From Desulfobulbus propionicus DSM 2032 (GTDB lineage Bacteria > Desulfobacterota > Desulfobulbia > Desulfobulbales > Desulfobulbaceae), in contig NC_014972.1 in NCBI RefSeq assembly GCF_000186885.1, positions 750,001-782,000 on the forward strand: 32,000 nucleotides of DNA, given 5' to 3'. The stretch's first letter is position 1; every line of letters starts with the position of its first letter. The notes under the pieces are model-generated. The model searched no databases. It was not told where the DNA came from and worked only from the letters and a program-made list of their open reading frames with translations. The translations under genes were made by a program, and so were the position numbers. Positions 2,270 to 25,654 of this stretch are shown here, piece after piece.

Positions 2270-5200
2270 ATGATCACCTTGGCAAAACTTGTGCAGGCCA
2301 TCGCCCCTGGGGCGAACCGGCGGCTTTCGGGAACCGTGCTCGCACAGCCTGTGACGGCGATCACCTCGGATTCACGGCAGGTCGTTCCGGGAAGCCTCTT
2401 TGTCGCCGTTCGTGGAGTAAAGACGGATGGCCGCCGCTATATTCCGGAGGCGATCGGCAAAGGGTGTCTGGCTGTGGTGGTCGATGTCGATGAGGGGGTT
2501 GATGAGTGGAATGTTCCGGTGCTCCTGGTCGACGATTGTCCAGCCGCGCTTGGTGAACTGGCCGCTGCGTGGAACGGTTATCCGGCCAGCCAGATGCAAT
2601 TGGTGGCCATCACCGGCACCAATGGCAAGACCACCTGTTCGTGGCTGATCGAGGAGATGCTGGTCGCCTCCGGCTTCCGCCCCGGAGTGATTGGAACGGT
2701 CAACTACCGCTATCACGGTGCCGACGGCCTCCATATCATCCAGGACGCCCCCCTGACCACCCCCGATCCGGTGACCTTGCAGGGATTGCTTCGCACCATG
2801 GCCGACAACGGTGTGACGCATGTGATCATGGAGGTTTCCTCACACGCCCTGCAACAGCAGCGTCTGGGCTCGACCCGCTTCGATGTGGCCTTGTTCACCA
2901 ACCTTAGCCGTGACCATCTCGATTATCACCAGTCGATGGAGGTCTATTTCGAGGCAAAGAAACAGCTCTTTCATAAGCATCTCAAGGAGCAAGGCGTAGC
3001 GGTGGTGGTGCTGGGGCCACAGGCGGAGGGGTGCGACTGGGGCGGCCTGCTGACGGCGTCACTGCCGGCGGAGCAGGTCATTCGCTGCGGTTTGCATGGT
3101 TCGTGCGAAGTGAGCGCGCATCAATTGACCCAGACCATGGAGGGGTTTCGGTGCTGCTTGCATCTGCGGGGCGCGGAGGTGAACTTTGCTTCGCCGTTGA
3201 CCGGGGAATACAATGTGCTCAATGTGCTGGCTGCGGCGGGCGTTGGACTGGGGTTGGGCCTGGTGCCGGATCGGTTTCTTGAGGGATTGGCCAGGGTGGG
3301 GCGGGTACCCGGCCGCCTGGAACGGGTTCGATTACCTGGTGAGCAGATAGGATCGGGGCCCGCTGTGTTTGTCGATTATGCCCATACTCCGGATGCCTTG
3401 GACAATGTGTTGCGCAATCTGAAAAAACTGACCACCGGACGTTTGCTTTGCGTTTTCGGTTGCGGCGGCGACCGTGATCGCGGCAAGCGGCCATTGATGG
3501 GCAGGGTTGCGGCCCAGTTGGCCGACGCGGTTGTCGTGACCTCCGACAATCCACGCACCGAGGCGCCGGAGGCCATCATCGACGAGATCGTTGCCGGTGT
3601 GGAGGCCGGCGGCAAGTCTAGGACCGACGCTTGGGCGTTGCTGAACGCTGCACAGCCGGTTGATGGTTACACCGTGATTGCCGATCGCAGGTGTGCCATA
3701 ACAGCGGCGTGCAGCCTTGCCGCTCCCGGTGACAGCGTCCTGCTCGCCGGCAAGGGGCATGAAACCTACCAGATCATCGGCACGGAAAAGCATTTTTTTG
3801 ATGATCGCCAGGAAGCGACCAACGGCCTGCTGCACTGGAACGAGCGCCATCTGCTTGCCGCCACGAGCGGCAAGGTTGCCGGCGGCACGCTCTGTCGTGT
3901 ATTGGCCTCGGTGTGCACCGATTCCCGCCAGCTGCGACCAGGAGATATTTTCGTGGCGCTCAAGGGAGAGGCCTTTGACGGGCACCAGTATATCGAAGCC
4001 GCTGCCGAACAGAGGGCCGGCGCCATTGTCGCCGAGTGGATGCCGCCACGCATGCGTCCGGAGGTTCTGTATATCGAGGTCAAAGACAGTCTGCGCGCCT
4101 TGGGCGATCTGGCAGCCTACCGACGTCGATTGCTGAACGGCACGATCAAGGTGGCGGCCATCACCGGCAGTTCGGGGAAAACCACGGTCAAGGAAATGGT
4201 GGCCAGCATCTTTGCCGAGGCGTTGCAGGGCAGCCGCACCGGAATGGACGCCGTTCTTAAAACCAGAGGCAACTTCAACAATCTGGTCGGACTGCCTCTG
4301 TCGCTGCTGCCGCTGGAGGCCGGTCACCGGCTCGCGGTGGTGGAGATGGGGATGAATGTTCCCGGCGAGATTGCCCGGCTGGTGGCCATCGCTGATCCGG
4401 ATATCGGCTGCATCAACAACGTTCACCCAGCCCATCTCCAGGGACTGGGCAGTCTTGCCGGAGTGGCTGCGGCCAAGGGAGAGCTCTTCGCCGGCATGCG
4501 GCCCGAAGCGGTGCGGGTAGTCAACCTCGATGATCCCCATGTCCGGGCGCAGGCCAAAAAATTTGCTGGCGAACAGATTGGTTTTGCGGTAACTCCTTCC
4601 GGCCGCAAATTTGGACCACAGGTCCGGGCCACCCGCCCGGACAATCTGGGTGAACAGGGCATGCGCTTTACCCTGCACATCGAAGGGTGGCGGGCGCGCG
4701 TGACCGTGCCGGTCTTTGGCGCCCACAATGTCAGCAACTGCGTCGCCGCCGCGGCCATCGCCCATGCCGCAGGTATCGGACCCGAGGTCATTGCCCAGGG
4801 CCTCCAGCGGTATGCTCCGTCGGTGGACAAGCGATTGGCGGTCACCGAACTGCCGGGAGGGCTGAAGGTCGTCAACGACGCCTACAATGCCAATCCCGCC
4901 TCGATGGCTGCGGGGTTGCGCACCGTGGCCGCCTTCGGCCACAGGGGATGCCGGCATCTGGCCGCTCTGGGCGACATGCTCGAGCTGGGTGCCGCTTCCG
5001 AAGATCTGCACGCCGGGATAGGCGCCCTGGTGGCGAGCTTGGGGTATGATTTTCTGGCCTTGACCGGGATGCAGGCGACCGTGATGGCGCGAGCCGCGAG
5101 CGCCGCGGGTATGAAGGAGGAAAACATCCGGGTGTTTGCCAATCCCCGCGCCATGGCCGACTGGATCTATCCGATGCTGGCCCGAGGGGACCTGGCCGCC

Positions 5201-5305
5201 GGCGACTGGCTGTTGATCAAGGGGTCGCGCGGCATGCGCATGGAGCAGCTCCTCGATGAACTGGAGCAACGCTTGAATAATTCAAAGAAAAACGTAACGG
5301 AATAA
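2270..5305 (+). CDS. murE-murF: fused MurE (UDP-MurNAc-L-Ala-D-Glu:meso-DAP ligase) and MurF (UDP-MurNAc-tripeptide:D-Ala-D-Ala ligase)
   Basis: Single 1011-codon frame. N-half: ITSDSRQVVPGSLFVAVRG, P-loop GTNGKTT, the DNPR motif of DAP-adding MurE (VVVTSDNPRTE), and GKGHETYQ. C-half starts near residue 520 (TDSRQLRPGDIFVALKGEAFDGHQY), with P-loop GSSGKTT, NDAYNANPASM and GDMLELG. No stop codon or start-like junction lies between the halves. Confidence 0.9.
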   Translation: MITLAKLVQAIAPGANRRLSGTVLAQPVTAITSDSRQVVPGSLFVAVRGVKTDGRRYIPEAIGKGCLAVVVDVDEGVDEWNVPVLLVDDCPAALGELAAAWNGYPASQMQLVAITGTNGKTTCSWLIEEMLVASGFRPGVIGTVNYRYHGADGLHIIQDAPLTTPDPVTLQGLLRTMADNGVTHVIMEVSSHALQQQRLGSTRFDVALFTNLSRDHLDYHQSMEVYFEAKKQLFHKHLKEQGVAVVVLGPQAEGCDWGGLLTASLPAEQVIRCGLHGSCEVSAHQLTQTMEGFRCCLHLRGAEVNFASPLTGEYNVLNVLAAAGVGLGLGLVPDRFLEGLARVGRVPGRLERVRLPGEQIGSGPAVFVDYAHTPDALDNVLRNLKKLTTGRLLCVFGCGGDRDRGKRPLMGRVAAQLADAVVVTSDNPRTEAPEAIIDEIVAGVEAGGKSRTDAWALLNAAQPVDGYTVIADRRCAITAACSLAAPGDSVLLAGKGHETYQIIGTEKHFFDDRQEATNGLLHWNERHLLAATSGKVAGGTLCRVLASVCTDSRQLRPGDIFVALKGEAFDGHQYIEAAAEQRAGAIVAEWMPPRMRPEVLYIEVKDSLRALGDLAAYRRRLLNGTIKVAAITGSSGKTTVKEMVASIFAEALQGSRTGMDAVLKTRGNFNNLVGLPLSLLPLEAGHRLAVVEMGMNVPGEIARLVAIADPDIGCINNVHPAHLQGLGSLAGVAAAKGELFAGMRPEAVRVVNLDDPHVRAQAKKFAGEQIGFAVTPSGRKFGPQVRATRPDNLGEQGMRFTLHIEGWRARVTVPVFGAHNVSNCVAAAAIAHAAGIGPEVIAQGLQRYAPSVDKRLAVTELPGGLKVVNDAYNANPASMAAGLRTVAAFGHRGCRHLAALGDMLELGAASEDLHAGIGALVASLGYDFLALTGMQATVMARAASAAGMKEENIRVFANPRAMADWIYPMLARGDLAAGDWLLIKGSRGMRMEQLLDELEQRLNNSKKNVTE

Positions 5306-6387: not shown

Positions 6388-7764
6388 GTGCAGATATCAA
6401 GAGGGACACAGGCAGTGGTGATCGGATTGGGGGCAGCCGGGCTGTCCACGGTCCGTTATCTGGTGAATCGGGGGGTGCGGGTACGGGTTTCCGATCGCCG
6501 CGCCGTGGAACAGATCCCCCCAGATACCTTGGCATTCCTCAAGCAGGCGGAGGTGGCGCTGGAAACTGGGGGACATACCGCCGCTTTTCTTGCCGGTGCG
6601 GACATGGTCATTCCCGGACCCGGCGTGCCGCTTGACCTGCCTGTATTGCAGGCCGCCCGGAAACAGGGACTGCCGGTGCTTGGCGAGCTCGCCCTCGCCG
6701 CGGGCCAGTATGCGGTTCCGGTGATCGCGGTCACCGGTTCCAACGGCAAGACCACTGTCACCAGTCTAATCGGTGAGCTGTTGCGGGCTTCGGGAAAAAA
6801 CCCCTTTGTTGGCGGCAACATAGGTACTCCCTTGCTCGACTATTTCGCCGATCCGCAGGGGTATGATGCGGTGGTGCTCGAACTGTCCAGTTTCCAGCTC
6901 GATCTGGCCGGCGCCTTCCGGCCCGATATCGGCCTGCTGCTCAATATCTCCCCTGATCATCTGGATCGCCATGGATCGTTGGAGGCCTACACCCTGGCCA
7001 AGCAGAATCTCTTTCGCCACCAGCAACTGGGCGACCGCGCCATCCTCGGCGCGGACGACCCTGTCGCCGCCGCAACACCACTGAATCCAGAGGTTGGCCG
7101 CTTCACCTTTGGCCGCGCCGAAGGATGCACGGCGCGCATTGCCGACGGACGGATTCTTCTCACCTTGATGGCCGGCGCCCTGTCCGGGAAAACCGAGTAT
7201 GTGCTCAGCGGTACTACACTCCACTCCTCGGTCAATCAGTTGAATGCCGCTGCGGCCATCCTGGCCGTTACCCTGGCCGGTTGCGAACAGGCCGGTATCG
7301 CCGAAGGGTTGAGACGTTTTGTGCCTCCACCCCACCGCATGGCCGAGGTCGCGACCATTGACGGCGTGCGGTTCATCAATGATTCCAAGGCGACCAATAT
7401 CGGGGCCCTGGAGGCTGCGCTGGCTGGTTGTGAGTCGCCTGTCGTGCTCATCGCCGGCGGTCGGGACAAGGGAAGTGATTACAGCTTGTTGCGTGAAGTG
7501 GTCGGGCGGAAGGTCAAGCATCTGGTGCTGGTGGGCGAGGCGGCTGGCCTGATGCGGGCCGCCCTGGGTTCGCTGGTTCCCACGGAAGCGGCGACCACCA
7601 TGGAGGATGCGGTGCGCAGAGCTATGACGGCGGCGGCCAGCGGCGATTTGGTGTTGCTGGCACCCGGATGTGCCAGTTTCGACATGTTTTCCGGGTACGA
7701 CGAGCGCGGCCGGGTGTTCGCCGAATGCGTCCACCAGATTGGCCAGGAACGGTTGGAGGCTTGA
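6388..7764 (+). CDS. murD: UDP-N-acetylmuramoylalanine:D-glutamate ligase MurD
   Basis: 458 aa with a GTG start 3 nt after the mraY stop. N-terminal Rossmann-like GLGAAGLS, Mur ligase P-loop GSNGKTT, and NISPDHLDRHG. Canonical position after mraY. Confidence 0.93.
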   Translation: MQISRGTQAVVIGLGAAGLSTVRYLVNRGVRVRVSDRRAVEQIPPDTLAFLKQAEVALETGGHTAAFLAGADMVIPGPGVPLDLPVLQAARKQGLPVLGELALAAGQYAVPVIAVTGSNGKTTVTSLIGELLRASGKNPFVGGNIGTPLLDYFADPQGYDAVVLELSSFQLDLAGAFRPDIGLLLNISPDHLDRHGSLEAYTLAKQNLFRHQQLGDRAILGADDPVAAATPLNPEVGRFTFGRAEGCTARIADGRILLTLMAGALSGKTEYVLSGTTLHSSVNQLNAAAAILAVTLAGCEQAGIAEGLRRFVPPPHRMAEVATIDGVRFINDSKATNIGALEAALAGCESPVVLIAGGRDKGSDYSLLREVVGRKVKHLVLVGEAAGLMRAALGSLVPTEAATTMEDAVRRAMTAAASGDLVLLAPGCASFDMFSGYDERGRVFAECVHQIGQERLEA

Positions 7765-7765
7765 G

Positions 7766-8002
7766 ATGGCCCTGATTCGTATGTGCTGTGTCTGTCACAG
7801 GGTGGAGCAGGAGGGCGGTTGGCGGCAGGTTTCCGAGCTGTCAGTGGACGCTGTGGTTTCCCATGGCTACTGTCCCGACTGTTTTGCCGAAGTCATGATG
7901 GAAATACGAGCGGCCATCGGTAATCGAGTGGTTCAGACGTTGCGGCCCGTGCACGATCCGGGTTGGTCTCGTTTGGCTGGGCGAAGGACCCCATGCGTTT
8001 GA
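7766..8002 (+). CDS. small four-Cys (CxxC...CPxC) zinc-ribbon-like protein of unknown function, in the slot normally held by ftsW
   Basis: 78 aa from ATG 7766, 1 nt after the murD stop. GGAGG (7754-7758) lies 7 nt upstream. The 3' end overlaps the murG start by 10 nt. Sequence is MALIRMCCVCHRVEQEGGWRQVSELSVDAVVSHGYCPDCFAEVM... It is not hydrophobic, so it is not an FtsW remnant. The ORF-track version starting at 7670 lies inside murD and is rejected. Confidence 0.6.
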   Translation: MALIRMCCVCHRVEQEGGWRQVSELSVDAVVSHGYCPDCFAEVMMEIRAAIGNRVVQTLRPVHDPGWSRLAGRRTPCV

Positions 8003-9087
8003 TCGTTGCCGGCGGCGGAACCGGCGGGCATCTCTTCCCCGGCATTGCCGTGGCTACCGCCATGCGGGAACGGGTTGCGGCCACTCGGGTGCTGTTCATC
8101 GGTACCTCGCGCCTGCTTGATCAGCAAGCCTTGGCTGGTTGTGGCTTTGAGCTGGCTGGGCTGCAATGCGGCGGAGTCAAGGGCCTTGGAACGATGCAAC
8201 GGCTTCGCAGCCTGTTACGTATGCCTGGGGCCGTGCTGGAGGCGATGCGGATGCTGCGGCAATTCAATCCGGATCTCGTTTTTGGCGTGGGCGGCTATGT
8301 GACGGGTCCGGTGTTGCTGGCCGCGCGGATGTTGGGGGTGCCGATCGCCATTCATGAGCAGAATTCGGTTCCGGGCATGGCTAATCGGTTGGCCGGTCGG
8401 CTGGCGGACAAAGTGTTTATTTCCCTGCCTTGCGTTCCCCCTTTTCCGCCGGCGAAGACCGTGCGCACTGGAAATCCGGTGCGCAGGGAGATCCTCGCTG
8501 CCGCCTCTGAAAAAACGCCTTGGCCTGAGCGGTCAACCACCCTTCTGGTGTTGGGCGGCAGCCAGGGGGCGCACCGGGTCAACCTGTTAGTGATGGAGGC
8601 CATGGAGCAGCTGGCCAGGCAGGGGAGAGCGTTGCACCTGATTCATCAAACAGGGGGGGCCGATGAAGAACAGGTGCGCACCTGTTACCACAAACTGGGC
8701 ATTGATGCCGAGGTGACGGCCTTTATCCGTGACATGGCCAGTGTCTATGCCCGAGCCGACCTGGTGGTATCCCGAGCCGGCGCCACCACCCTGGCCGAAT
8801 TGGCGGTCATGGGGCTGCCGGCGCTGTTGATCCCCTATCCGTACGCCGCCGATGATCACCAGGCAACCAATGCGGAATATTATGTAAAAGGCAGTGGTTG
8901 CAGGATGTTGCGTGAATCAGGATTGACCGGTGAAATTCTTGCCCGATCGATCAGCGAATACTTGCAGAACCCGGAAGAGTTACATACAATGTCGGCCAAC
9001 ATGAAGACCATGGCAATGCCGGATGCGACCAACCGGATCGTGGATGAATGTTTGCAGCTTGCTACCCGAAAGGGGTGGCATGGATGA
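7993..9087 (+). CDS. murG: undecaprenyldiphospho-muramoylpentapeptide beta-N-acetylglucosaminyltransferase MurG
   Basis: 364 aa from ATG 7993 (MRLIVAGGGTGGHLFPGIAVA, the canonical MurG N-terminus). C-terminal GT28 motifs are present (SRAGATTLAELAVMGLPALLIPYPYAADDHQATNA). Confidence 0.93.
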   Translation: MRLIVAGGGTGGHLFPGIAVATAMRERVAATRVLFIGTSRLLDQQALAGCGFELAGLQCGGVKGLGTMQRLRSLLRMPGAVLEAMRMLRQFNPDLVFGVGGYVTGPVLLAARMLGVPIAIHEQNSVPGMANRLAGRLADKVFISLPCVPPFPPAKTVRTGNPVRREILAAASEKTPWPERSTTLLVLGGSQGAHRVNLLVMEAMEQLARQGRALHLIHQTGGADEEQVRTCYHKLGIDAEVTAFIRDMASVYARADLVVSRAGATTLAELAVMGLPALLIPYPYAADDHQATNAEYYVKGSGCRMLRESGLTGEILARSISEYLQNPEELHTMSANMKTMAMPDATNRIVDECLQLATRKGWHG

Positions 9088-16823: not shown

Positions 16824-18387
16824 ACCGTCCGGAGTCCATCGCCGGATAGCCCAATTCAACGGACAGCGGGGCACCGTCGGCCGCTGGATCGAGTGGATCC
16901 GCAGGAATATCCGCCTCAAGCCGGTGCGGCTTGATTTTTCCCTGCTCTGGCGGCGTCTGCGCTTCCGGGACGAAGCCAATGCCTTGCTGCCCTTCGAGCT
17001 GGTCAAGTATTTTTCCTTCACCTCGCTGCTGCTGATCCTGATCGCCTCCTTCATCCTATCGTGGGTGATCGCCAGCAATGCCAAAAGCGTGCTCCTGCAG
17101 CGCAGTGAGGCCTATTCGCGGTTGTTTGCCGACAATCTCAACCGTCAGGTGTTCCTCCAATTCGTCCTGCCCACCGTGGTGCGCTACGGCCGCATCGCCT
17201 TGTCCGAGCAGGATCAATACGAGCGCCTCGACCAGATCGTGGCCAACATCACCCGCGGTATGAACATCGAATCGGTGACCATCTTCGAACCGGTGCAGAA
17301 CAGGGTGGCCTATTCGACCATTCCCGAATTGATGGGCAAGCGGGACATGGGCGGACTGGAATACCAGAAAGCGGCCAAGGGAGAAAGCAATTCGGTGCTG
17401 ATCAGTGGCGGTTCCCTGTTCAGTCTGTTGCCTGGAGCGGCCGAGGTGTTCTGTACCCTGAAGACCTATGTGCCGTTTCGCCAGGAAAACAAGCTGGGCG
17501 AGCGGACCGGCGAGATCATGGGGGTCATCGAGGTGGTGCAGGACCTGTCCGAGGACCTTGAAGCCATCATCAGCCTCCAGGCCAGGGTGATCATGCTTTC
17601 CCTGATCATCATGTCCATTTTATTCGCCATTCTCAGCATGATCGTGGTGCGGGCCAACCGGATCATGGCCGAACGGGCCGAAGAGCGGCTGCGCCTGGAG
17701 GAGCAGCTGAACGAGGCTCAGCGGCTGGCATCCCTCGGCAAGATGGTGGCGGCGGTGTCCCATGAGATCAAGAATCCCCTGGGCATTGTCCGCTCCACCG
17801 CCGAGATCCTGGGCAACCGGATCAGCAAGGTGGCTCCGGGCAACGAACGGCTGGCCAATATCATCGTCGAGGAAACCTCGCGTCTCGACGCCATTGTCCG
17901 CGAATTTCTCGATTTTGCCCGGCCGCGCGAGGTCGACAAAGTCCCCGGTTCCCTCAACGGGGTGGTCGAGCGGCTGCTGCGGTTCATGGAGCCGGAATTT
18001 CAGCAGAAGGCGGTGCGGCTGGAGGTTCGGCTCGATCCGAACCTGCCCGAGATTCCCTTCGACAGTGAACAGATCTATCAGGTGCTGCTCAATATCGTAT
18101 TCAATGCCATTCAGGCCATGCCCCAGGGCGGTGACCTGCTGCTGAACACCATGCTGGAACCCGGAGGCGGCGCGGTGGCGGTCGAGGTGGCCGATAGCGG
18201 TATCGGCATTCCTCCGGAAAAATTGGAACAGATCTTCACCCCCTTCTATACCGATAAAAATCGCGGCACCGGTCTTGGTTTGTGCATCGCCAAGAGCATC
18301 GTCGAGAAGCATCAGGGGGTGATCGGGGTCAAGAGCACGCCGGGCGAGGGCAGCATTTTTCGCGTCACCCTGCCGGTGCTGGTCTGA
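16810..18387 (+). CDS. membrane sensor histidine kinase (two TM segments, ~190-aa extracytoplasmic sensor, HisKA, HATPase_c)
   Basis: 525 aa from ATG 16810, overlapping the rSAM stop by 14 nt. TM1 is LLLILIASFILSWVIA and TM2 is VIMLSLIIMSILFAILSMIVV. H-box AAVSHEIKNPLG, N-box LLNIVFNAIQAM, G-boxes DSGIGIPPE and GTGLGLCIAKSIV. Confidence 0.88.
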   Translation: MKPSKPSGVHRRIAQFNGQRGTVGRWIEWIRRNIRLKPVRLDFSLLWRRLRFRDEANALLPFELVKYFSFTSLLLILIASFILSWVIASNAKSVLLQRSEAYSRLFADNLNRQVFLQFVLPTVVRYGRIALSEQDQYERLDQIVANITRGMNIESVTIFEPVQNRVAYSTIPELMGKRDMGGLEYQKAAKGESNSVLISGGSLFSLLPGAAEVFCTLKTYVPFRQENKLGERTGEIMGVIEVVQDLSEDLEAIISLQARVIMLSLIIMSILFAILSMIVVRANRIMAERAEERLRLEEQLNEAQRLASLGKMVAAVSHEIKNPLGIVRSTAEILGNRISKVAPGNERLANIIVEETSRLDAIVREFLDFARPREVDKVPGSLNGVVERLLRFMEPEFQQKAVRLEVRLDPNLPEIPFDSEQIYQVLLNIVFNAIQAMPQGGDLLLNTMLEPGGGAVAVEVADSGIGIPPEKLEQIFTPFYTDKNRGTGLGLCIAKSIVEKHQGVIGVKSTPGEGSIFRVTLPVLV

Positions 18388-19523
18388 TGGACCGGGCGGC
18401 AAGGGGGAACACGATGGGCGGGACAAGCGGCGCGGCGCGGATCGGCTGTTGCATCAGCGGTCATGGTTTCGGTCATGCAACCCGGGCGATCGCGGTGATG
18501 CAGGCCCTGGTCGCACGGATCGAGGCCAGGTTTGAGATCCTCACCTCGGTCCCGGCCTGGTTGTTCGGCCAATCCCTGGCCTCTCCGCACACTCTCCACC
18601 CGATGATCACCGATGTCGGCCTGGTCCAGCAGCATGCGCTGGCCGAAGATCTGCCCGCCACCCTGGAGGCCCTGGACCGCTTCTACCCGCTGGACGAGCA
18701 ACGGATCGATCAGGCCGCCGCCGCGCTGCAGGGCTGCCAGCTGGTCCTGTGCGACATCGCGCCCCTGGGGATCGCGGCCGCCAAACGGGCAGGCATCCCC
18801 TCGATCCTGGTGGAAAATTTTACCTGGGACTGGATCTATGCGGCGTACGCCGAACAGTGGCCTGACTTTGCCCCCCATGTCGAGGGATTGTCGGCCCTGT
18901 TCGCCCAAGCTGATCATCATCTCCAGGCAAGTCCGGTCTGTTGTCCAATGCGGTGCGACCGACAGGTTGATCCGGTGGCCCGCCGACCACGCGATCCAGT
19001 CGCGATCCGCCGGCGTCTCGAGTGCGGGTCGGAACAGCGTCTGATCTTGATCACCATGGGAGGAGTGGGCGGCGGGAAGCAGGAGATCGCCCTGCACTCC
19101 CTGCGTGAACGCCGTGATTTGGTGGCCGTGTTCAGTGGCCAGAGCCGGGAGGAAAAATTCAGCGGAAATCTTCGTTTTCTTGCCCAGGACGGTCCCTGGT
19201 ACCACCCTGATCTGGTGGCCGCCGCCGATCTGGTGGTCGGCAAGGTCGGCTACTCGACCGTGGCCGAGGCCTACCAGGCTGGCACCGCCTTTGCCTATGT
19301 GGCGCGGCGCGGTTTTCGTGAGTCGGCCACGCTTGAGGCCTTTCTTGACAGTCATCTGCTTTCGTGGAAGATAGAAGAATGCGACCTGCAAAGCGGCCTG
19401 TGGCTCGATACCCTGCCGTCCTGGTCAAACAGCCGTCGGGCCGTTGAGGACAGGGCAAACGGCGCGGACCAGGTGGCGGACTATCTGATCGAACTCCTTG
19501 GACAAACACATGCCAGACCTTGA
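18387..19523 (+). CDS. GT-B fold glycosyltransferase-like protein (MJ1255 / arabinokinase N-terminal-domain-like family), function unknown
   Basis: 378 aa from ATG 18387, which shares one base with the kinase stop (TGATG). ATG 18414 is an alternative start. Motifs: CISGHGFGHATRAIAV, TDVGLVQQHAL, VENFTWDWIY, VVGKVGYSTVAEA. The family assignment is from my memory of these motifs and is not searched. Confidence 0.7.
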   Translation: MDRAARGNTMGGTSGAARIGCCISGHGFGHATRAIAVMQALVARIEARFEILTSVPAWLFGQSLASPHTLHPMITDVGLVQQHALAEDLPATLEALDRFYPLDEQRIDQAAAALQGCQLVLCDIAPLGIAAAKRAGIPSILVENFTWDWIYAAYAEQWPDFAPHVEGLSALFAQADHHLQASPVCCPMRCDRQVDPVARRPRDPVAIRRRLECGSEQRLILITMGGVGGGKQEIALHSLRERRDLVAVFSGQSREEKFSGNLRFLAQDGPWYHPDLVAAADLVVGKVGYSTVAEAYQAGTAFAYVARRGFRESATLEAFLDSHLLSWKIEECDLQSGLWLDTLPSWSNSRRAVEDRANGADQVADYLIELLGQTHARP

Positions 19524-24080: not shown

Positions 24081-25406
24081 TCAGCTGTCGCCGATGAACA
24101 TCTGGGTGGTCAGATCCCAGCAGGTGACGATGCCGTTGCGCCATTTGGCCAGCTGCACATTGCCGTCCTGAGAGACGACGATGGCCATGACATCGTGGAG
24201 GGCGTTGCACAGGTGGTAGACGGAACGGTGGCGCGAGCCATATCCCTCGATCTTGGCGAGGGTCAGGATTTTGCCCTCGACATCGCTGGCGATGGCAACC
24301 TCGGTCAATTTGTCGAGCGAGCCGACGATCATGGCGCCGAATCCCAAAGGCCCTCGGCTGCAGGTCACCACCGCGCCATCGACCGAGGCTAGGCTGGCCA
24401 CGAACTGGGCATGCTCGTACAGCGCCTCTTCCAGGTCGTAGACCGCTGATTCATGACGCAGGTCGACGTAATCCTTCCAGGTGACGATCTTGTCCGGATC
24501 GTTGATGTCGCCCAAGGCGGTGGTCGCCAGCCGGATGGTCCTGATCATCAACTGCTGCTGTCGGCGAATGGCTTCATCGTTGTGAAAACGATATTTCATC
24601 AGGATAAACGGATTATCGCCCGAGAGTTCAGGCGGGTTGTCGTTGGCAAAAATGATGAAGGTGCCACCATGCCGATTCATCCGGGTGACGCTGATCACCC
24701 GTTTGAGCAGCTGAAATTGCAGGCTTTCGATGAACTCGTCCTGAATTTTGGCCACCGGGTAGAGCACGCTGGCCCGGAACACCTCGTGCATCTCGAGCAG
24801 GTTCTCGCGCGCCGGGGCAAAGAGCTTGTTGATCCATTTGGACTGGAAGGCATTGGCGGTGGAATCCAGCAACCGGCCGCCGTTGAGGGTGGCGATGATC
24901 TTCAGCCCGCGGCAGATGGTCAGCATGCCAGGACCGGTCACATGCACCACGAAGGTATCGGGCAGTTGATTGGTTTTCTTGTTTCCCCCGCGTTCCTGCT
25001 GCAACCAGCGAATACCGGAATTGACGAGGCCCCAGATCTGGAACCCCTTGTCCGGATGCGGCTCGATGGCCACCAGCGACCGCTCGAAGTCCACGGCCGG
25101 CGACAGGCGGCGCAATTCGTATTCATTGAACGGCCGGGCGGGCGCGAACAGCAGACGGTGAAATCCCTTGGGCGGCCCCTGGTCGGACGGAAAAAGATCG
25201 GGCGCGGCCAGAATCAGCCGCAGGGTGACCGGCCGGTCTTCCTCGCGCATCATGCTGACCTGATAGCAGGTGGAGATCAGCTGTTCCAGGGCCGCCTTGC
25301 CCGGGAGGTTGTCGGGGAGCTGTTCACCGTCGCTTTCCGCCGAAGAGGGCTGGCCATTCCATCGCTGGGTGATCAGGGCGACAAGTTCGGCGGGATAGAC
25401 ATGCAT
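24081..25406 (-). CDS. soluble protein with a C-terminal diadenylate-cyclase (DAC/DisA_N)-like domain and an unrecognised N-terminal ~230-aa domain
   Basis: 441 aa with no TM segment. The C-terminal half aligns by eye to the CdaA/DisA DAC domain. NRHGGTFIIF matches the GALIvIe block. VDGAVV is the DGA motif (coded at 24372-24380). GYGSRHRSVYHLCNALHDVMAIVVSQDGNVQL matches GTRHRAALGISExTDAxxIVVSEETGxISL, with RHR coded at 24225-24233. There is no obvious SD before ATG 25406. Confidence 0.75.
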   Translation of the reverse strand: MHVYPAELVALITQRWNGQPSSAESDGEQLPDNLPGKAALEQLISTCYQVSMMREEDRPVTLRLILAAPDLFPSDQGPPKGFHRLLFAPARPFNEYELRRLSPAVDFERSLVAIEPHPDKGFQIWGLVNSGIRWLQQERGGNKKTNQLPDTFVVHVTGPGMLTICRGLKIIATLNGGRLLDSTANAFQSKWINKLFAPARENLLEMHEVFRASVLYPVAKIQDEFIESLQFQLLKRVISVTRMNRHGGTFIIFANDNPPELSGDNPFILMKYRFHNDEAIRRQQQLMIRTIRLATTALGDINDPDKIVTWKDYVDLRHESAVYDLEEALYEHAQFVASLASVDGAVVTCSRGPLGFGAMIVGSLDKLTEVAIASDVEGKILTLAKIEGYGSRHRSVYHLCNALHDVMAIVVSQDGNVQLAKWRNGIVTCWDLTTQMFIGDS

Positions 25407-25599
25407 AGACCGTACCGGGAAAGAAAAGGGGAAAGCGGGATGGACCGTACCGTAAAAACAAATAAAACCATGGCGGCTGGATTTTGTAAACTTCTTTTCC
25501 GGTCGTGTTTTCCACGGGATGCGCGGGGTCAGCCAAGGATGGGAAAAGGGTTGTGCTGAGAAGGCTTTTGCGGTAGTAGGGAGCCTTGCGGTAGGTGGG

Positions 25600-25627
25600 C
25601 CGGCCGCTTTGGGCGGCGGGATTTTTT
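25600..25627 (+). promoter_or_regulatory. terminator-like hairpin plus T tract in the nadA 5' leader (candidate attenuator or riboswitch expression platform)
   Basis: CCGGCCGC (25600-25607), loop TTTGG, GCGGCGGG (25613-25620). This is an 8-bp GC stem with one G-G mismatch, followed directly by ATTTTTTAT. It ends 28 nt before the nadA ATG, and no + strand gene lies upstream for it to terminate. Confidence 0.45.
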
Positions 25628-25654
25628 ATCGAGAAGGAAACAGCAGAGTTGGTC

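Follow-up and report, generated by a model that had tools for sequence, protein, structure and literature searches.

We analyzed a stretch of 32,000 nucleotides from Desulfobulbus propionicus DSM 2032 (contig NC_014972.1, positions 750,001 to 782,000; this whole stretch is called the window below) and found that a gene on its minus strand, at positions 24081 to 25406, encodes what is, near-certainly, a member of the DACNV-DAC family, in which a DACNV domain is followed by a diadenylate cyclase (DAC) domain. Taking the proposal as a whole, we put at roughly 60% the probability that this protein is an accessory, soluble synthase of c-di-AMP (cyclic diadenosine monophosphate), that its gene is monocistronic, and that its N-terminal module gates dimerization of the DAC domain in response to some cue. 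The finding is real, but the family is already known, being catalogued in Pfam, InterPro and NCBI. An earlier note on this DNA, made from its letters alone, had located the open reading frame (ORF) and its DGA and RHR motifs, and all three lie where it placed them. The gene and its product are laid out as follows:

24081 to 25406, minus strand: DACNV-DAC coding sequence from the ORF list, with an ATG start and encoding 441 amino acids plus the stop codon.
25023 to 25313, minus strand: PF21751, 'Probable sensor domain DACNV', residues 32-128 (E=3.4e-30, 104.6 bits with a cut-off of 27, profile positions 4-97 of 98).
24672 to 25022, minus strand: residues 129-245, which join DACNV to DAC and consist in the models of a low-confidence loop, a four-strand beta-meander (152-180) and a helical linker (190-244).
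24084 to 24671, minus strand: divergent DAC catalytic domain, residues 246-441, assigned from a Foldseek search of the PDB and from Pfam matches in homologues.
24450 to 24581, minus strand: insertion 1, helical, residues ~276-319, between strand beta2 and the helix preceding DGA (AlphaFold2 model; inferred boundaries).
24372 to 24380, minus strand: DGA catalytic motif, D343-G344-A345, placed by trimmed-profile alignment to DacM (7dfx) and DisA (3c1y).
24252 to 24311, minus strand: insertion 2, a beta-hairpin, residues ~366-385, a 'lid' between DGA and RHR (AlphaFold2 model and trimmed alignment).
24225 to 24233, minus strand: RHR catalytic motif, R392-H393-R394, aligning with GTRHR of CdaA, DacM and DisA.
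24165 to 24173, minus strand: S412-Q413-D414, corresponding to the VSEE strand in CdaA and aligning with VSEE (CdaA), VSEQ (DacM) and VSRR (DisA).

An AlphaFold2 model of the 441-residue protein, built with 40 diverse homologues, reached a predicted local distance difference test (pLDDT) score of 85 and a predicted TM-score (pTM) of 0.76. When this model was compared with the PDB by Foldseek, each of the best 50 matches was a DAC (probability 0.98-1.0), with target TM-scores of ~0.5-0.6 for single-domain DAC chains. The matches included CdaM (8ofj), CdaA (8c4j, 6hvm and 4rv7), DisA (9y4s and 4yxm), DacA (6gyw), DacM (7dfx) and, at rank 14, CdaS (2fb5). Together, the model and the alignments described below show a C-terminal region of ~195 residues that has the DAC fold and holds DGA, RHR and the VS(Q)D strand in catalytic register.

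Sequence searches were less direct. A single-sequence search of PDB sequences with the window protein found no DAC, and a search of the same sequences with the full family profile gave marginal matches only, in the RHR region. In a Pfam scan that listed matches to E-values of up to 10, the window protein matched PF02457 (DisA_N; gathering score 27 bits) with 19.4 bits and E=8e-4 over residues 357-421 (profile positions 56-115 of 119). Because eight of ten homologues with 41-46% identity exceeded the gathering score (27.6-32 bits), the DACNV-DAC family is tied to PF02457 by transitive homology; the scores of the tested homologues ranged from 24 to 32 bits, and that of the window protein stands at the low end.

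The landmarks of the DAC domain are GGTFII at residues 247-252 and AIVVSQDG at residues 408-415, with 96 residues from G247 to D343 and 49 from D343 to R392. Across 40 homologues (39-74% identity), G344, R392, H393, S412, Q413 and D414 were invariant, D343 and A345 were conserved in at least 90%, and the third position of RHR was Leu in three. Since the catalytic residues are conserved across these 40 homologues, DGA and RHR are not chance tripeptides. Their register was assessed with two trimmed family profiles, one lacking residues 276-319 and 366-385 (the two insertions) and the other lacking residues 341-354. Removal of the insertions produced a contiguous alignment to DACs of the PDB, running through DGA, RHR and VSxx to DacM 7dfx (DGAVII...GARHRAA...VVSEQ) and DisA 3c1y (MDGAIVL...GTRHRTA...VSRR); DAC chains accounted for 14 of the 31 listed matches, 11 of them within the top 24, and the score was 18.0 bits. 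The start of the Pfam match at residue 357 (profile position 56) had raised F356-G357-A358 as an alternative DGA strand. The profile lacking residues 341-354 aligned only from RHR onward, with 14.8 bits versus 18.0 bits, and this candidate was rejected. Because its register outscores the alternative, D343GA is taken as the catalytic motif.

These results bear out the reading, made in the earlier note, of the C-terminal half as a DAC domain with both motifs and of its trailing block as the VSxx strand of CdaA and DisA. The same note had named two outcomes that would speak against a DAC, namely the lack of a DAC match and motifs outside the active site; DAC matches came from the fold search and the homologues, and the register placed both motifs at active-site positions. 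Of the checks that it proposed, that of an AlphaFold model, made here against the PDB, returned DACs exclusively among the best 50 matches, CdaA included, and the Pfam search was clear for the N-terminal domain and sub-threshold for PF02457.

The N-terminal half, in which the earlier note recognized no motif while suspecting one of the named DACN* domains, contains such a domain at residues 32-128, PF21751 scoring far above its cut-off (104.6 versus 27 bits). The idea of a new signalling input or architecture did not survive, as the family is in Pfam and the orthologues from Desulfobulbus and Desulfogranum are named in NCBI and UniRef 'putative sensor domain DACNV-containing protein', with 39-88% identity between the window protein and proteins so named. 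The DACNV region was the most conserved part of the protein, with a mean column identity of 0.69 versus 0.54-0.63 for most DAC segments, and the invariant N-terminal residues included C47, S51, E56, R63, G77-P78-P79, W125-G126, S130-G131 and G140-G141. The Pfam scan found no family in residues 129-245. Modelled on their own (pLDDT 77), residues 1-245 had a mixed alpha/beta structure; Foldseek turned up nothing structurally related to it in the PDB (best E=0.3, probability at most 0.08) or, at E<0.1, in BFVD. We also considered that the N-terminal half might be a degenerate duplication of the DAC domain, with VVHVTGPG...LNGGRL resembling IVVSQDG...RNGIV. This idea was rejected: hhalign comparison of the N- and C-terminal profiles matched only 21 residues, which the two had in common by construction, and Foldseek with residues 1-245 gave no DAC match.

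The DACN* names reportedly originate from a survey of DAC architectures by Galperin, published in 2023 in J Bacteriol, and DACNV-DAC (PF21751 followed by PF02457) is presumably one of the 22 DAC architecture families recognized there. The sorting of DACs into 22 families by Galperin 2023 is cited in PMC12901056. The name 'DACNV' itself was absent from the searchable literature.

In the explanation that we prefer, two DAC domains would meet head-to-head and condense two ATP molecules into 3'3'-c-di-AMP, as characterized DACs do, and the N-terminal module, responding to a cue from inside the cell, would determine whether the DAC dimer forms or what geometry it takes. By analogy with these enzymes, c-di-AMP is the most likely product. 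DAC catalysis requires the head-to-head dimer, and GlmM inhibits CdaA by occluding that dimer (PMC8573169). Because the known regulators of DACs allow or block the head-to-head arrangement, we propose that the N-terminal module acts as a gate on dimer formation or geometry, for which the noncatalytic parts of CdaS and DisA, and the partner GlmM in the case of CdaA, would be parallels. The protein would then supply a second, condition-specific c-di-AMP input and not serve as the housekeeping cyclase; its role is probably accessory, since CdaA is encoded by 31 of 33 gut Desulfobacterota species (PMC12901056, Table 1).

Several points weigh against this explanation. The window protein itself misses the gathering score of PF02457 (19.4 versus 27 bits), and the match of the insertion-trimmed profile to PDB sequences was marginal (E=0.02). 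'Sensor' is a label given by Pfam and not a finding, as the N-terminal module has no match to a ligand-binding fold in the PDB or BFVD, and conservation as high as that of this module is unusual for an input domain. The searchable literature contained no biochemical data on any member of the DACNV-DAC family, and the accessory role is drawn from a survey of gut Desulfobacterota. Finally, with two insertions in its fold, the DAC domain might be impeded in forming the canonical head-to-head dimer, or might make a different product.

The earlier note had observed extra sequence between GGT and DGA, which we could trace to a helical insertion, and it had missed a second insertion, the 20-residue hairpin between DGA and RHR. 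Insertion 1 contains two helices in the model (278-297 and 310-315); no such helices are known in canonical DACs. The spacing from GGT to DGA was 94-96 residues in all family members, and R282 and W310 within the insertion were invariant. The strands of insertion 2 (369-373 and 381-385; pLDDT ~85-90) come in addition to the two strands that canonical DACs have between DGA and RHR. Family-wide, DGA and RHR are 48-50 residues apart; in CdaA of Bacillus subtilis, D171GA and R203HR are 32 apart (PMC8573169). D375 of the hairpin was invariant and A373, E377 and G378 were at least 90% conserved among the 40 homologues. Since both spacings are constant in the family and both insertions hold conserved residues, the insertions are ancient, functional parts of the family and no lineage-specific oddity.

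The conserved lid hairpin gives a concrete reason to question c-di-AMP as the product. Elongation of the DGA-RHR lid segment allows PanS, a minimal DAC, to make 3'3'-cUA in place of c-di-AMP (Ragucci et al. 2026, bioRxiv 10.64898/2026.08.10.743927). The window protein might likewise be an active cyclase whose product is not, or not only, c-di-AMP, and might use its 20-residue hairpin to form, e.g., the mixed dinucleotide 3'3'-cUA. The longer spacing (49 versus 32 in CdaA) and the conserved hairpin residues fit this possibility, but the hairpin is predicted to be structured, not a flexible loop, and the DS-2C enzymes (DACNG/DACNH), whose DAC domains are also divergent, still make c-di-AMP. A further point that we count against it is F356, an aromatic residue conserved in at least 90% of the homologues, which we take to be roughly at the place of the adenine-stacking Tyr of CdaA. 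On balance, a different product seems unlikely to us.

A pseudo-cyclase, in which the DAC domain would bind ATP or c-di-AMP without catalysis and serve as a nucleotide receptor or scaffold, is about equally doubtful. Such a loss of activity would agree with a Pfam DAC match that falls short of the threshold and is confined to the C-terminal half of the profile, with two insertions inside the fold, with Leu as the third RHR residue in 3 of the 40 homologues, and with VSQD in place of VSEE. However, very deep divergence has left DGA, RH and S-Q-D unchanged or almost unchanged, a pattern expected of a maintained active site, and the VSxx strand varies among DACs of proven activity (VSEE, VSEQ and VSRR).

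Two cysteines are invariant in the family: C47 (25266-25268), in the DACNV motif STCYQ, and C400 (24207-24209), in the catalytic helix RHRSVYxLC. C400 lies two turns past RHR, at a place that is a gap in CdaA when the two are aligned. The pair could form a thiol or redox switch. A more far-reaching reading would have the N-terminal 245 residues, whose fold is absent from the PDB, sense a cue particular to the anaerobic Desulfobacterota, Nitrospirota and Geobacteraceae, possibly a thiol or redox signal through C47 and C400, and would have the lid hairpin yield a product other than c-di-AMP; we regard this combination as speculative and rather improbable. Firmicutes and Actinobacteria are the groups in which signalling by c-di-AMP is well understood; next to nothing is known of the inputs that control it in the anaerobic Desulfobacterota, Geobacteraceae and Nitrospirota. 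Within this very common family, the gene offers a clean case of a single gene, and it combines a highly conserved orphan-fold domain with a DAC domain whose motifs are intact. Characterization of one member would give the entire Pfam family a function, bring to light a new sensory fold, and test whether lid insertions generally retune the product specificity of DACs. As a discovery, the gene adds little, its architecture having been named and annotated in public databases.

Comparison with known DAC systems showed that the window protein is indistinguishable from other DACNV-DAC family members except for a DAC score at the low end. It resembles CdaA/DacA in its DAC fold (8c4j, 6hvm, 4rv7 and 6gyw being among the best matches) and in having GTRHR...VSxx in register, with a spacing from R to S of 20 residues (19 in CdaA). 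Unlike CdaA, it has a soluble N-terminal module of 245 residues in place of the three-helix transmembrane anchor, a helical insert of ~45 residues before DGA and a hairpin of ~20 residues from DGA to RHR (49 versus 32), and neither cdaR nor glmM is near the gene. With DisA it has in common the DAC fold and motifs (9y4s and 4yxm, and the alignment to 3c1y) and solubility; however, DisA begins with its DAC domain and continues into a helical spine and a helix-hairpin-helix (HhH) DNA-binding domain, whereas the DAC domain of the window protein is C-terminal, and the Pfam scan of the window protein listed no HhH family at E-values of up to 10. CdaS, also a soluble DAC and also among the fold matches (2fb5), has a noncatalytic N-terminal part thought to govern activity and offers the closest mechanistic analogy for the regulation that we propose. 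In CdaS, this part is a short helix pair, whereas the window protein has an alpha/beta module of 245 residues with no detectable similarity to it, and the same Pfam scan listed only DACNV and DAC. The earlier note was thus right that the transmembrane N-terminus of CdaA, the HhH domain of DisA and the helices of CdaS are all missing. DS-2C (DACNG-DACNH-DAC) and PanS resemble the window protein in being divergent DACs with conserved DGA/RHR-type residues, and DS-2C also in its uncharacterized N-terminal 'DACN' domains. They differ from it in their N-terminal family, and the window gene has no defence-island context, effector partner or PADLOC match, and no DACNG or DACNH domain by Pfam.

The extent of the family was determined by an exhaustive profile search over 1.84 billion representatives at 50% identity, which yielded 3,531 representatives at E<=1e-3, of which 567 also passed E<=1e-30. 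All matches of full length had 415-455 amino acids and aligned end to end. The layout of DACNV followed by DAC was common to all full-length homologues examined, and no other Pfam or output domain was fused to DACNV in 10 representatives of odd length. Relatives were found in at least 585 species-level genomes, among them Desulfobulbales, Geobacteraceae (Geomonas and Citrifermentans), Desulfobaccales, Nitrospirota, Syntrophobacteraceae, Binatia and Desulfarculales. Identity to the window protein followed taxonomy: it was 75-88% for proteins from Desulfobulbus, the nearest homologues reaching 83-88%, fell to 61-68% for those from Desulfogranum and was 39-46% in other orders. The gene order HAD hydrolase (haloacid dehalogenase superfamily), nadA, DAC, major facilitator superfamily (MFS) transporter and kinase was kept throughout the Desulfobulbaceae. 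Because identity tracks taxonomy and synteny holds across this family, vertical inheritance of a housekeeping-type gene is indicated.

When neighbouring genes were clustered at 71 loci in search of a conserved partner, we found clade-specific synteny only, and neighbours outside the Desulfobulbaceae were entirely different. In Geomonas and Citrifermentans (locus L065, 5034-10565; also L068, L069, L072, L078 and L079), the DACNV-DAC gene lies between mutS (880 amino acids, divergent) and the gene for DinB/Pol IV (IMS family, convergent). In a Geobacteraceae metagenome-assembled genome (MAG; locus L001), it is followed downstream by a fusion of a 2H-phosphoesterase (CPDase) with HAD and by MutS2 (MutS_V plus Smr). 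These neighbours hint at a possible association with DNA repair reminiscent of DisA, a weak lead from a single clade with mostly opposite strands. In Desulfogranum and one Desulfobulbaceae MAG (L003, 4373-5986; L042, 6039-7823; also L035, L037 and L039), the immediate upstream neighbour on the same strand is an ORF of 537-616 amino acids that matches no Pfam family and is missing from the window.

These neighbourhoods bear on whether the protein might, like DS-2C or PanS of Panoptoo, produce the signal in a system of anti-phage defence, a role that we consider very improbable. A part in defence is indeed played by DACs with DACN* N-termini, as with DACNG and DACNH of DS-2C. However, the proposal was discarded on finding no PADLOC match in the window and no neighbour that is effector-like or in some other way conserved across clades; the housekeeping context (dcw cluster, nadA and transporters), the monocistronic gene, and the agreement of synteny and identity with taxonomy also speak against it. 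That the protein is not a DAC at all and its DGA and RHR strings are coincidental, as the fruitless single-sequence PDB search and the low Pfam score might suggest, has a negligible probability and is refuted by top 50 fold matches that are DACs only, by homologues above the Pfam threshold, and by motifs that are in register and conserved family-wide.

The preferred explanation of a soluble, monocistronic synthase also draws on the gene and its immediate surroundings. The N-terminus MHxYP is conserved among the aligned homologues. In all, 319 homologues were found, those listed being mostly full-length. The highest Kyte-Doolittle mean over 19 residues was 1.25, with ~1.6 as the threshold for a transmembrane segment, and since no window of 19 residues reaches transmembrane-like hydrophobicity, the protein is taken to be soluble. 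On the plus strand, the convergent gene for the MFS transporter runs up to 24059, leaving a gap of 21 bp to the stop of the DAC gene, and the divergent nadA, also on the plus strand, starts at 25595 or 25655. The gene thus stands alone, as had been noted before, and from this arrangement it most likely forms its own transcription unit. One further feature is delimited by these neighbours:

25407 to 25654 (248 bp), no strand assigned: divergent intergenic region common to the DAC gene and nadA, presumed from gene arrangement only to hold the promoter of the DAC gene.

No sigma-70-like promoter was found in 25407-25654, and no Shine-Dalgarno sequence preceding the ATG of the DAC gene was obvious there. 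A promoter and terminator scan around the gene gave no promoter-like site and nothing above shuffle expectation, and an Rfam scan of the window, this intergenic region included, gave no RNA element or riboswitch at the gathering threshold. A plus-strand ORF of 368 amino acids (24453-25559) runs antisense to the DAC gene and could mislead naive ORF calling. Because all of the homology evidence concerns the minus-strand frame, we read it as a shadow ORF typical of DNA with 60% G+C, not a gene.

The window as a whole represents housekeeping chromosome, the first 15 kb being occupied by the dcw cluster (ftsI to ftsZ). Beyond it, the order is radical-SAM, sensor kinases, an ATP-binding cassette (ABC)/UPF0014 pair, hybrid kinase, MFS transporter, DACNV-DAC, nadA, HAD hydrolase, SulP and a TetR regulator. 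A plus-strand ORF of 413 amino acids (18282-19523), flanked by a sensor histidine kinase and an ABC-transporter ATPase, had no Pfam match at E<=1e-3. Within the dcw cluster, only ~200 bp separate murD (6388-7764) from the murG that follows it (7963-9087), and this interval, the usual place of ftsW, holds no ORF of the size of that gene. Finally, a single plus-strand ORF of 1011 amino acids (2270-5305) carries two full Mur-ligase sets (Mur_ligase, Mur_ligase_M and Mur_ligase_C twice each) and, from this domain content, looks like a murE-murF fusion.

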